NCBI RefSeq assembly: GCF_006345805.1
Contig: NW_021832518.1
Coordinates: 1 to 30,162 of the forward strand
Direction of reading: 5' to 3'
Length of the DNA: 30,162 nt
Source of the DNA: Octopus sinensis
Taxonomy: Eukaryota
Shown here piece after piece: positions 6,629 to 30,162 of this stretch (within the stretch, counting starts at the first letter, position 1; each line of letters opens with the position of its first letter). A model generated the notes under the pieces. That model saw only the letters and a program-made list of their open reading frames with translations. It searched no databases and was not told the DNA's origin. Position numbers and translations under genes: made by a program.

Positions 6629-6856
6629 GACATTATATATATATATATATATATATATATATATATTTGCGATGATAATCTGGTGCTTGACTGAGGATAG
6701 AGGGCTTTGAATGACCTGTCCTTGTTTTTTTGTTTTGTCTATCTGGATGTTTTGTTGTCCCTTTTTGTATCACCTAGCTGTCTGGATGTTTTGCGTTCTT
6801 GTCCCATTTTGTATTTTATATATATATATATATATATATATATATATATATATATT

Positions 6857-7016
6857 CATCATCATCATCATCGTTGTTTAACGTCTGCTTTCCATGCTAG
6901 CATGGGTTGGACGATTTTGACTGAGGGCTGGCGAACCAGATGGCTGCACCAGGCTTCAATCTTGATCAGGCAGAGTTTCTACAGCTGGATGCCCTTCCTA
7001 ACGCCAACCACTCCGA
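6857..7016 (-). mobile_element. Retroposon family D, 3' fragment
   Basis: Same (CAT)n tail and CAGCTGGATGCCCTTCCTAACGCCAACC motif as the other copies. Confidence 0.75.
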
Positions 7017-7095
7017 AAAATTACTTGTAAGAGGATGCATGGCATTCAATCATATACTAATATATAGATGCATATATACATATGTATATATACAC

Positions 7096-7470
7096 ATCAT
7101 CATCATCGTTTAACGTCCGTTCTCCATGCTAGCATGGGTTGGACGGTTCGACCGGGGATCTGGGAAGCCAGAAGGCTGCACCAGGCTCCGGTCTTATCTG
7201 GCAAAGTTTCTACAGCTGGATGCCCTTTCTAACGCCAACCACTCCGAGAGTGTAGTGGGTGCTTTTTACGTGCCACCTGCACTGGTGCCAGGCGAGGCTG
7301 GCATCGGCCACAGTCGGATTGGTGCATTTTATGTGCCACCTGCACGGAAGCCAGTCGAGGCGGCACTGGCTTCGGCCACGATTCGGATGGTGCTTTTTAC
7401 GTGCCACCGACACGGAAACCAGTCGAAGCGGCGCTGGCATCGGCCACGATTCGGATAGTGCTTTTTATGT
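7096..7470 (-). mobile_element. Retroposon family D with three internal tandem units of about 63-68 bp
   Basis: Units beginning GTGC(T/A)TTTTAYGTGCCACC at about 7259, 7322 and 7390, plus a partial unit at about 7458. Confidence 0.8.
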
Positions 7471-7502
7471 ATCTCTTTTTACGTATCTTTACACACTTAC
7501 AT

Positions 7503-7870
7503 CTATACATATATATATATATATGCATATGTGGGCACAGGACGTCACGAAACGTGTACACCAACAAAAATACGAAGTACGAGTACATGGAATATGAACT
7601 ATTTTTTCGAACAACAAAAGACACAAACAGAAAACAAGACAAGCAACATAAAAAACGACCCTTCATCAGTTGTCGGCTGTTTTTCTTCTCTCGTGTCACA
7701 GCAGCCAACAAATGATGAGGCTCCCTCTTTATGTTGTTTGTCTTGTTTTCCATTTGTGTCTTTCGTTGTTCGAAAAAATAGTTCATACTCTATTGTACTT
7801 TGTATTTTTTTTTTGGTGTAAACGTTTTGTGATGTCCTGTGCCCACATATGCATATATATATACGTATAG
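7503..7870. repeat. Imperfect fold-back inverted repeat, arms of about 175 bp, spacer of about 20 bp
   Basis: TGCATATGTGGGCACAGGAC...CCTTCATCAGTTGTCGGCTG is mirrored by CAGCCAACAAATGATGAGG...GTCCTGTGCCCACATATGCA. Confidence 0.9.
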
Positions 7871-7954
7871 ACATTAGTATGTACATATACGTATGTATAT
7901 ATGCATATATATTATTTATACTCCTTGTTTCTTTCTGTGTTTCTTTTCTGTGTA

Positions 7955-7992
7955 TCTTTCTGTTGAAGAGCGTAGGCTCGAAACGTAAAAGA
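7955..7992 (+). ncRNA. Minimal type I hammerhead-ribozyme-like motif (A6 mutated)
   Basis: Stem I TCTTT/AAAGA; core CTGTTGA (consensus CUGANGA) plus an extra A; stem II GAG-CGTAGG-CTC; GAAA; palindromic stem III ACGT; cleavage triplet GUA. Confidence 0.65.
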
Positions 7993-8121
7993 CTTGTTTT
8001 ATTTCTATTCCTGAGCGCCATACTAATACAATTGTTTGTTTGTATTCCACCTGCCTTCGTCTTTTGTTTATTTTCATAAAGCTTCCCGTTATATATATAT
8101 ATATTATATATATATACAATT

Positions 8122-8171
8122 TTTGTCAGTGAACAGGTCGCGGTCTTAAAGTGACGAAATATTTTGACAAA
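8122..8171 (+). ncRNA. Degenerate hammerhead-like motif
   Basis: Stem I TTTGTCA/TGACAAA; core position reads GTGAACA (two mismatches); stem II GTCGC/GTGAC; GAAA; palindromic ATAT. Confidence 0.4.
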
Positions 8172-26430: not shown

Positions 26431-26828
26431 CTAGCAGTATCGCCCGGCGTTGCTCGGGGTTGTAAGGGAAATAACTATATAAACATTTTTAGAGAGTTAT
26501 AGCCAAAAAATAGAAAAAAAATGCATTAAAATGGAAAAAAAAAATGATGGTAAATTTTTTAAAAATCGTTGACTCATCTTAGACATTTTTAGAGAGTTAC
26601 TTCCCTTATATAATAGCGAAAAAATGCATTAAAATGGAAAAAAATGATGGTAAATTTTTTTTTAAATCGTAGACTCATCGTAGACGCGCGCTAATACCCA
26701 GAAGGGCTCGATATGAATCACGACTATAAGATACCCGGTTTTGGTTAAACTGCACCGCAAAATGTGGGAGTAGTTAGGAATCTAAATCGTAGGAGACAGA
26801 CACACAACTTCACTTTTATATATAAAGC
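26431..26828 (-). mobile_element. Non-autonomous Helitron
   Basis: The minus strand ends in a hairpin CCCGAGCAACGCCGGG, 8 nt, then CTAG|T. The 5' end is CTTTATATATAAAAG (expected TC start changed to GC). Internal tandem duplication of about 100 bp. Confidence 0.85.
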
Positions 26829-26965
26829 TATACACGTGCTGAAATCGAGGGAATTCTTCTCTGGTGTTAACGGTTTTATTTCTTACTAAGGGCTTTCTTT
26901 TCAAACCTTACAAAAGATCATGATCCCTCGATCAATTCTGCTATCCGTTATTTTTTTCTTCTATG

Positions 26966-27125
26966 TTTTACTTGTTTCAGTCATTAGACTGTGGCCATGC
27001 TGGGGCACCGCCTTGAAGAATGTTTCCTACTTATTTTTAAAGGCTGGTGCTTATCCTATCGGTCTCTTAAACTGAACCGTTAAATTACGGGGACGTAAAC
27101 ACACTAACATCGGTTGTCAAGCGGT
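26966..27125 (-). mobile_element. SINE family C, old 3' fragment
   Basis: TTTTACTTGTTTCAGTCATTAGACTGTGGCCATGCTGGGGCACCGCC. Confidence 0.75.
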
Positions 27126-27414
27126 AGTGGTGGTGGTGGTGGGGCAAATACACACACGAAGACTCACACACACACATACAAGCAGACACGCACACATACT
27201 CACACGTACGCATGCACACGCACACACACGCACGCACACACACGCACGCACACATATACATACACACGCGCACACACACGCACGCACACATAAACACGCA
27301 CACATACACGCACACACACACACAGACACCGCCCACCCTTAGCTATGCACGTGCCTTTGAATAAAAAGGAAGACTTATCTTTGCCAGCTTAGTAGACTGG
27401 GGCAATGATTGGAA

Positions 27415-28112
27415 AAACTGGCACTCCGTCGTTAACGACGACGAGAGTTTCCATTGATCCAATAAACTGAACAGCCTGCTCATGAAATTAGCATGCAAGT
27501 GGCTGAGTACTCCACAGACATACTCTTTACTCTTTTACTTGTTTCAGTCATTTGACTGCGACCATGCTGGAGCACCGCCTTTAGTCGAGCAAATCGACCC
27601 CGGAACTTATTCTTTGTAAGCCCAGTACTTATTCTATCGGTCTCTTTTACCGAACCGCTAAGTAACGGGGACGTAAACACACCAGCATCGGTTGTCAAGC
27701 AATGTTAGGGAGACAAACACAGACACACAAACACATACACACACATACATATATATATACATATATACTTTGGGCCTCTTTCAGTTTCCGTCTACCAAAT
27801 CGACTCACAAGGCTTTGGTCGACCCGAGGCTATAGAAGAAGACACTTGCCCAAGGTGCCACGCAGTGGGACTGAACCGAGAACCATGTGGTTGGTAAACA
27901 AGCTACTTACCACACAGCCACTACCCTTAACGTAGTTCTCAAGGAGATTCAGTGTGATGCAAATGCGACAAGGCTGGTCTCTTTGAAATACAGGTACGAC
28001 TCATTTTCGCCAGCTGAGTGGACTGGAGCCACATGAAATAAAGTGTCTTGCTCAAAGGACACATCGTGCCGCTGGGCACCGATCTCGCGATTTTACGATC
28101 GGGAGCCGAACG
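27415..28112 (-). mobile_element. SINE family A split by a nested family C insertion
   Basis: The family A body breaks at ...CCACAGACA (27520) and resumes at TACCCTTAACGTAGTTCTC (27922). Confidence 0.85.
27522..27922 (-). mobile_element. SINE family C nested in SINE A
   Basis: Full collinearity with 4826-5230. Confidence 0.9.
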
Positions 28113-29384
28113 TGTAAAAAATAAAATTACAAGATGTCAACAGATGTCAACGTTCGTGATGAATGGCTGTGATGCTCGCGGTCATTCAAGCGAGAACGAC
28201 AAATTGAAAATGTCATCGAGACAATCCCCCCTTGCTGCTGCTTCTGCCGCTGCTGCTGCTGCTGTTGTTGTTGTTGTTGTTGTTGCAGTTGCTGCTGCTG
28301 TTGCTGTTATCGGTTTATCTTTCTCTTTGTTGTAAGGGGCCGTATAGAATGTCGTCTCCGGTTTATCTTGCGATCTCTAATCTCGCTGATGGCGTAGCGA
28401 TATTATGATATGGCCATGTCATTTCGTTCGGTTCTGTCGTATCTGTTCTGTCGTGTGAACGTGTAATTGCGTGCGTGTAATGTATTCGTGTATGTGTGTG
28501 TGTGTGAGTGTATGTGTGTGTGTATACATATATGTATATATGTATATATATGTCTCCATGTGTATATATATGCATACATATATATCTCTGTATACACACA
28601 TATAGGTACAAGCACACGCATTATATATATATACACAGACACAAACATATGTACATATATGTATATTACATATATATAATATATATATATATATATATAT
28701 AATATATATATATATATATAACATCACATATATATAGGCAGTATATATATAGCATATATATTTACTGTAATATATATATACATATATATATACAGTATAT
28801 ATATATGCATATATATATGTATATATATATGTATGTATGTATATATATATATATATATTAGCATGTGTGTGTGGATGGGTTGTGTGTGTGTGTGTGTGTT
28901 GTATACATATACATTTACAAAGGTGATACATTTCACCTTTGCTACTCAGTTTTCCCGCTTAATTTTCACCTGAAAGAAAAGAAAACAACAACATCCAAAA
29001 CAGCTGTTTCACCGATGACATGGACAATAATCAGAACGATACTGACAAGCGCCTCAGCAATAACAACAACAACAACAACAACAACAATTGATGTAACCAC
29101 GACGACGGCAGCAGCATGAGGCACCACTACCACCACCACTACAACCACAGCAATAACAAGCACAAAACAACAATAGGCTCTACAGAAGTTTCTCTGTAGT
29201 TGACACATAAGTTTTGGTAAATAAAGGACGGAGACACATACATAAATACACGCACGCATGCATACACACGGATACATGGACACATACACACATGCATACA
29301 CACACACACATACACACACACACACACACACACGCACACACACACACACAAGTGAGCGCATAAGCTGCAAAATTATCACAGAAC

Positions 29385-29420
29385 TGTTACTCAGAGTTTC
29401 ACGCTCCCGTTCATCAGACA
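29385..29420 (-). ncRNA. Type I hammerhead ribozyme with intact catalytic core
   Basis: Minus strand: UGU-CUGAUGA-ACG(GGAG)CGU-GAAA-CUCUGAG-UA-ACA. Stem I extends via AUCACA/UGUGAU, and a 15-bp perfect inverted repeat (29366-29380/29438-29452) flanks the motif. Predicted cleavage after GUA, between 29388 and 29387. Confidence 0.82.
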
Positions 29421-29974
29421 TTGTGATGAATCAGAGGTGTGATAATTTTGCATCTTTTAATGTATGTATATATATATCTATATATATATATATATATATA
29501 TATATATATATATATATATATATATATATATATATATACATATATAAATATATGTATGTGTATATATATATATAGTTATATTATATATATAAATTTATAT
29601 ACATATAAATATATGTATGTATATATATATATATACATTTATACACACACACACACACACACACACACACATATATATATATATATAGATATATATATAC
29701 TAATATATGTATTATATACATAAAATATATCTCTGTCTATCTATCTATCTATCTATCTATCTATCTATCTATTTATCTATATATATATCTATCTATCTTT
29801 ATTAAACACTAACGTACGCACAAACAGAATACATAACATGCTTATATATATATATATATAATATATATATATTATATATATATATATATATATATATATA
29901 TATTAATTATATATATATATATAATATATATATATATATTATATATATATTATATATAGTTATCAGTAATAATA

Positions 29975-30162
29975 TAGGGTGAAATTAATTAATTGGAATA
30001 ATCATTAATTTCACCAAGTAGATTTCGGCATTGTAAAGCCCCATTTGAGGAAAGTTTAAGAAGTAAGTAAATACTAAGTAATTAATGGTTAGCAACGATT
30101 GCCCACACCACACACCGAATTTAGAAATAGCAGTCAAAGAGTTATAGCTATTCTTTCTACTA
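29975..30162 (+). repeat. AT-rich interspersed module related to 21660-21860
   Basis: Shares GGGTRAAATTAATTAATT..AATTTCACCAAGTA..CCATTTRAG with 21667-21732. TTAGAAATAGCAGYCAA occurs inverted at about 21845-21861. Confidence 0.55.

Follow-up and report, generated by a model that had tools for sequence, protein, structure and literature searches.

Probable truncated ends of Penelope-like elements, three with minimal hammerhead motifs, in TA microsatellites of an Octopus sinensis contig

Penelope-like elements (PLEs) of the Hydra clade carry a hammerhead motif of the form CUGAYGA..TGAA-ACTC-N-GAGT near their 3' end, and (TA)n is the target of nearly all Hydra families in File S2 of Craig 2021, including Hydra-1_Obim (PMC8557442). 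Both Hydra and Naiad families from Octopus are included in the supplement of that study, which also describes inverted 5'-truncated copies and one-sided tails as standard PLE features and Naiads as PLEs that target (TA)n and lack a canonical hammerhead (PMC8557442). The minimal hammerheads of metazoan PLEs occur mostly as single motifs, probably derived from truncated PLEs (Cervera and de la Pena 2014, PMC4209133), while a tandem array of units, every one with its own hammerhead, is what defines retrozymes (10.64898/2026.07.22.740005; PMC7229834). Here, we compare with these systems a window of 30,162 nucleotides from Octopus sinensis (contig NW_021832518.1, positions 1 to 30,162), in which a reading made from the sequence only had named nine short islands lying against (TA)n tracts and had attributed them to several non-autonomous PLE or retrozyme families.

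The islands are probably 5'-truncated 3' ends, that is, pieces of pseudo-long terminal repeats, of several ordinary Penelope-like families inserted in TA microsatellites. The coordinates and sequence given earlier for the nine islands proved correct on re-check, and the features distinguished within them are collected in Table 1. The proposed PLE origin is supported for the islands with a hammerhead or a fold-back, whereas the three islands at 6667, 26215 and 29975 show nothing diagnostic in themselves. Each component of this interpretation has already been published: insertion into (TA)n, hammerheads at 3' ends, truncated copies in inverted orientation, and PLE families from octopus. As a system, the locus is of little significance: it is a compact example of PLE stumps filling microsatellite-rich DNA while escaping Rfam, with one point of specialist interest, a hammerhead with a G3-C8 core pair.

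Table 1. Features of the islands in the 30,162-nt window.
Feature	Position	Strand	Characteristics
Intact minimal type I hammerhead, Hydra-clade type	29385..29420	-	Core CUGAUGA 29417-29411, GAAA, helix III ACUC-U-GAGU, cleavage triplet GUA
Inferred PLE 3' end around the intact hammerhead	29350..29460	-	3' end at (TG)n; 111-nt stump
Minimal type I hammerhead, one core change (A6U)	7955..7992	+	Stem I of 5 bp, helix III with palindrome ACGU, an A bulged out ahead of G10.1-C11.1
Inferred PLE 3' end with the A6U hammerhead	7922..8090	+	Runs straight into (TA)n
Minimal hammerhead, swapped core pair G3-C8 (C3G and G8C)	8122..8171	+	GUGAACA 8129-8135, GAAA 8156-8159
Inferred PLE 3' end with the G3-C8 hammerhead	8119..8315	+	(TA)n tract on one side, imperfect TA run on the other
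Head-to-head inverted pair	7525..7852		Arms of ~165 nt (~83%) separated by 22 nt, (TA)n at either outer end; CUGAUGA half-core only
Near-perfect palindrome	10765..10994		114-nt arms, 113/114 matched (99%), 2-nt loop, outer ends in TA; then an AT-rich piece to 11083
AT-rich island plus inverted partial copy (42 nt) that runs into (TA)n	21655..21919	-	Arms 21736-21777/21878-21919 (95%); no hammerhead
AT-rich island, (TA)n at both ends	21961..22210	+	Fold-back 21961-22036 at left end, 31-nt exact arms; no hammerhead
Relative of 21655-21736	29960..30162	-	Continues beyond the window end; no hammerhead
T-rich island with a (TA)n tract on either side	6667..6815	+	Right end repeated internally in direct orientation; unpartnered CUGAGGA, no hammerhead
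AT-rich piece away from (TA)n	26215..26430		First 53 nt within a larger inverted duplication that pairs with 25070-25318; hammerhead absent

Minimal hammerheads and the Hydra clade

A type I hammerhead descriptor was run on both strands of the window, with block shuffles of the window as reference. Complete minimal type I motifs were present in three of the nine islands, each as a single motif and each 35-145 nt away from the inferred 3' end of its own island. Two motifs with at most one core mismatch were reached in 0.7-1.3% of 300 block shuffles. These three motifs are what stands of the "about five hammerhead-like traces" counted in the sequence-only reading; the remaining traces are half-cores. 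Candidates at 6691 and 7663-7669 were rejected, consisting of a CUGANGA half-core with neither GAAA nor a stem partner. As the partner is absent and the window contains 6 CUGANGA heptamers against 14 expected, lone half-cores are no evidence for a hammerhead. Two-mismatch matches at 17889, 21773 and 27954 were likewise discarded, 2.7 being expected by chance.

Minimum free energy folding singled out one of the three motifs (8119-8180, z -2.15; z 0.23 and -0.86 for the other two), and cofolded dimers did not show an active hammerhead fold. A hammerhead word had no match in a metagenome contig collection, nor did the hammerhead motifs in a viral contig collection. A search of sequencing runs returned at least 20 runs with 0.20-0.42 of 79 words, from 10 studies and four organisms, none of them recorded as RNA, and was not used as evidence.

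The intact motif at 29385-29420 shares TGAA and helix III ACTC-N-GAGT with the Hydra-clade hammerheads of File S2 (PMC8557442). It thereby resembles, as a 3'-end hammerhead of an element targeting (TA)n, families such as Hydra-2_aMil, Hydra-2_aJap and Hydra-1_Obim, and its island contains a short inverted partial copy (~29424-29455, plus strand; the fold-back spans ~29364-29455) that ends near (TA)n, similar to the inverted 5'-truncated copy noted for Penelope-13_HM in the same source (PMC8557442). In contrast to those families, the island is a 111-nt stump only, has one end at (TG)n and represents a family absent from that file.

A scan of a genome contig collection with the Hydra-type motif gave one match, a contig of 517 bp (L001), on which the hammerhead lies ~75 nt downstream of the end of an 87-aa open reading frame (ORF) on the same strand. 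Alignment of 29385-29420 with this motif showed core and helix III to be conserved. The encoded ORF end shares 77% identity with P0002, a protein of 727 aa; among the matches of at least 600 aa, 25 of 25 contain the [YF]RDD motif, and Atlas neighbours carry RVT_1 or GIY-YIG. By eye, it also resembles the printed endonuclease C-termini of Hydra elements (PMC8557442). Comparison of P0002 with PDB sequences gave nothing significant, and the contig's protein had no match in the viral contig collection. The contig (1-517) is part of a bacterial metagenome-assembled genome yet resembles host-animal DNA, with a PLE endonuclease end followed by a hammerhead, and is probably contamination. Since it belongs to another organism, it links the type of motif, and not the copy in the window, to an autonomous PLE.

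Several further observations weigh against a PLE origin of the islands. No island could be connected to a PLE ORF, the best tblastn match (E 0.03) lying inside SINE (short interspersed nuclear element) copies. Six of the nine islands lack a hammerhead and three lack a fold-back as well. The island at 29350 meets (CA)n on its left, which is (TG)n on its own strand, instead of (TA)n. Rfam returned no hammerhead or twister in the window or in four sub-regions, just low-complexity miRNA-type matches under the gathering scores. Finally, none of six words taken from the islands matched the consensus files of Craig 2021, where line breaks can hide words, and the Hydra-1_Obim hammerhead is unlike all three window hammerheads (PMC8557442); the window families therefore appear to lie outside that file. 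We consider it likely that at least one family in the window belongs to the Hydra clade.

The two remaining motifs compare best with the minimal hammerheads of Cervera and de la Pena. Both 7955-7992 and 8122-8171 have a bulge between positions 9 and 10.1, a G10.1-C11.1 pair and a palindromic helix III, as described for PLE minimal hammerheads (PMC4209133). They differ in the core: the covariation reported there is U3-A8, whereas 8122-8171 has G3-C8 and 7955-7992 has A6U. A search of the supplement of that study, covering its text and not its figures, did not recover the core words of the window hammerheads (PMC4209133).

Animal retrozymes without long terminal repeats are likewise short, non-coding and PLE-related and carry a type I hammerhead; they differ in consisting of tandem hammerhead units with a circular RNA (PMC7229834; 10.64898/2026.07.22.740005). 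When the tandem arrays of the window were compared with all three motifs, no hammerhead was found within a tandem repeat, and the islands thus fall outside the definition of retrozymes. The attribution to non-autonomous families or retrozymes was not supported, lone minimal hammerheads being described as the usual remains of truncated PLEs (PMC4209133). True non-autonomous derivatives mobilised in trans, either SINE-like units or monomeric offspring of retrozymes, have been described, including solo retrozyme monomers (PMC8557442; 10.64898/2026.07.22.740005), and would agree with a window devoid of a suitable ORF. That some of the islands are of this kind is nonetheless quite unlikely, given that tandem hammerhead repeats are absent, that the motifs are of the minimal PLE type and not of the canonical retrozyme type (PMC7229834), and that the sole outside match of the Hydra-type motif sits behind an ORF.

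In line with the earlier statement that the islands have no coding capacity, no Penelope-type ORF (reverse transcriptase plus GIY-YIG), and with it no full-length autonomous PLE copy, was found in the window. Antisense translation of two neighbouring hammerhead islands gave no protein, and Pfam recognized nothing in ten frames from the window and L001 or in four full-length matches. The reported absence of tRNA heads was also borne out, ARAGORN detecting 0 tRNA genes in the window, although decayed heads would escape this program.

Fold-backs and contact with (TA)n

The window is microsatellite-rich animal DNA, with 76 (TA) tracts of at least five units and a simple-repeat content of 14.6%. 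Distances to tracts of (TA)≥5 were determined for 11 sub-islands derived from the nine named islands. Eight of them end within 10 nt of a tract and another two within 30 nt. The claim that the islands lie directly against (TA)n is valid for those eight; it fails for the left end of 29350 and for 26215-26430, neither end of which is close to a tract (235 nt) and which adjoins the tail of a SINE and another repeat. Copies of control repeats were within 10 nt of (TA)n in 4 of 17 cases and within 40 nt in 8 of 17. The islands had been picked for their contact with (TA)n, so that the contact count is circular; for this reason, and because 4 of the 17 controls show the same, contact alone says little about origin.

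The inverted duplications whose outer ends dissolve into (TA)n were confirmed as five fold-backs in four of the nine islands. In the head-to-head pair at 7525-7852, the arms align at 82.8% over 87 bp, with ~168 alignable columns. Those at 21655-21919, 21961-22210 and 29350-29460 are asymmetric, the short arm stopping in (TA)n and the long arm running on; their arms stop at different points and the extensions differ in length, as compared with a one-sided PLE tail of 30-40 bp. The sole islands that match one another within the window are 21659-21736 and 29968-30053 (76% over 87 bp).

Published biochemistry suggests how truncated PLE ends of this layout could arise. In experiments with a purified PLE protein, both strands were nicked and extended at AT-rich sites, and reverse transcription began at two internal positions, by which the tail is defined (Frangieh et al. 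2024, PMC11167929). By analogy, AT-rich DNA would be nicked by the element's GIY-YIG nuclease, and the reverse transcriptase would start near the RNA 3' end and stop early, leaving 3' stumps of 100-300 nt. Priming from the opposite target strand would add a second, inverted short copy and hence produce head-to-head pairs that run outward into (TA)n; where the start sites differ, just one arm would have a tail. Cleavage by the hammerheads would be confined to dimers, within the parent transcript; the lone minimal copies are probably inert, as helix III would need a partner.

The islands without a hammerhead could instead be other elements, which would be compatible with the three hammerhead islands being best explained as truncated PLE ends. 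In such a mixture, 7525-7852 and 10765-10994 would be miniature inverted-repeat transposable elements (MITEs) with TA duplications, and an AT-rich group (11057, 21662, 25073, 26252, 29971) would be the ends of another TA-targeting retroelement, for example Dong-R4 or hammerhead-less Naiad PLEs. The long terminal inverted arms of the two former, lying within TA, agree with MITEs and also limit the earlier statement that the islands lack terminal inverted repeats and target-site duplications: both are formally terminal inverted repeats, and both are located in TA, which would hide any TA duplication. The asymmetric fold-backs at 21655, 21961 and 29350, with one short and one long arm, better fit inverted truncated retro-copies. 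As to the AT-rich group, R4-clade elements target microsatellites, and the common end motif of the group occurs 18 times against 10.7 expected, a weak enrichment that was reached in 2 of 100 shuffles with a pattern chosen after the fact. Dong-R4 makes up 92.7 Mb of the O. vulgaris genome (PMC13282606), and Penelope and Dong-R4 are both abundant in coleoids (PMC8967140). Naiad_Obim and Naiad_Ovul share the (TA)n target and inverted copies with the islands, and the annotation "HHR_half_core" of Naiad_Ovul recalls the lone CUGAUGA of 7525-7852; a word search, however, gave no match between the islands and the consensi of the Octopus Naiads in File S1 (PMC8557442). We regard this mixed origin of the hammerhead-free islands as doubtful, though a real possibility.

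The AT-rich end motif (TTTACCCTYAAWT-like) is found near TA runs at 11057, 21662, 25073, 26252, 26304 and 29971, and is common to several hammerhead-free islands.

The islands sum to 2,300 bp, or 7.6% of the window. This matches the share of PLEs in the genome of Octopus vulgaris, 6.83% in 190 families (PMC13282606), and the density, previously called unusually high, therefore seems ordinary, close to the average for an octopus when judged against this related species.

The G3-C8 core

In the hammerhead at 8122-8171, stems I and II are 7 and 5 bp long, and a G10.1-C11.1 pair, a bulged G and one extra U by the cleavage site are also present. Its swapped core pair is known as an engineered compensatory or rescue mutant (PMC11167929; PMC8495972; PMC3884650), and the natural core covariation reported for hammerheads is U3-A8 (PMC3088659; PMC4209133). 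No natural G3-C8 core was found in the literature searched, although one may already be included in Lunse et al. 2017, which is the most extensive survey of variant PLE hammerheads. The core may thus be a new natural hammerhead variant.

How readily such a motif arises by chance depends on the way in which it is counted. Any two-mismatch core with at least 12 bp in stems I and II occurred in 34 of 500 shuffles, which would favour coincidence, against 0 of 500 once a Watson-Crick 3:8 pair was required, a threshold set after the match had been seen. A similar doubt attaches to the palindrome at 10765-10994, whose nearly complete arm match around so short a loop would suit a fold-back artefact of library preparation or assembly; the window, however, also contains older, diverged fold-backs of the same layout. 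That the palindrome is an artefact and the motif a coincidence is, in our view, very improbable.

Tentatively, 8119-8315 could represent a PLE family that naturally uses G3-C8, the reverse of the near-universal C3-G8, and in which the swapped pair would be kept by selection for cleavage; we think this possible, without favouring it. If G3-C8 were the consensus of the family, it would constitute a core variant of natural origin that is overlooked by standard descriptors, and, if this were true for the whole family, natural evidence that the minimal hammerheads of metazoan PLEs are selected for catalysis. The latter argument is qualified by the finding that one PLE inserts in vitro without hammerhead cleavage (PMC11167929).

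Other elements in the window

SINE-like repeats in the window are of few kinds with many copies each, and are repeats typical of octopus; a SINE word had no match in the genome, metagenome and viral contig collections. Part of a SINE copy with ~55 nt of flank forms an inverted duplication (25070-25367 and 25971-26267; 98%, ~600 nt apart) that encloses a LINE-like (long interspersed nuclear element) fragment. A frame on the minus strand at 25370-25640 contains WKAEHFPIEVGCRGF and has no Pfam match; we take it to be the end of a LINE with a restriction-like endonuclease. At 16860-17175 (plus strand), the 3' end of a LINE-like ORF, presumably of RTE type, is followed by (TGA)n and has 69 protein relatives that are up to 88% identical, none of them named.

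Directly after the island 26215-26430, an element with an internal 100-bp tandem repeat is inserted (26430-26825), the ends of which we assume to be like those of a non-autonomous Helitron. The decayed stretch at 22770-23460, one frame of which had no match in Pfam, is presumably similar to a Tc1/mariner transposase remnant. Minisatellites occupy 472-960 (17-bp period, 29 copies) and 17277-17444 (36-bp period, 4.7 copies), and the 17-bp array adjoins a dispersed repeat copy that begins at 942. Internally repeated copies of one dispersed repeat are found in inverted orientation at 19595-19813 and 20790-21007 (80%), one of them beginning 4 nt from (TA)n.

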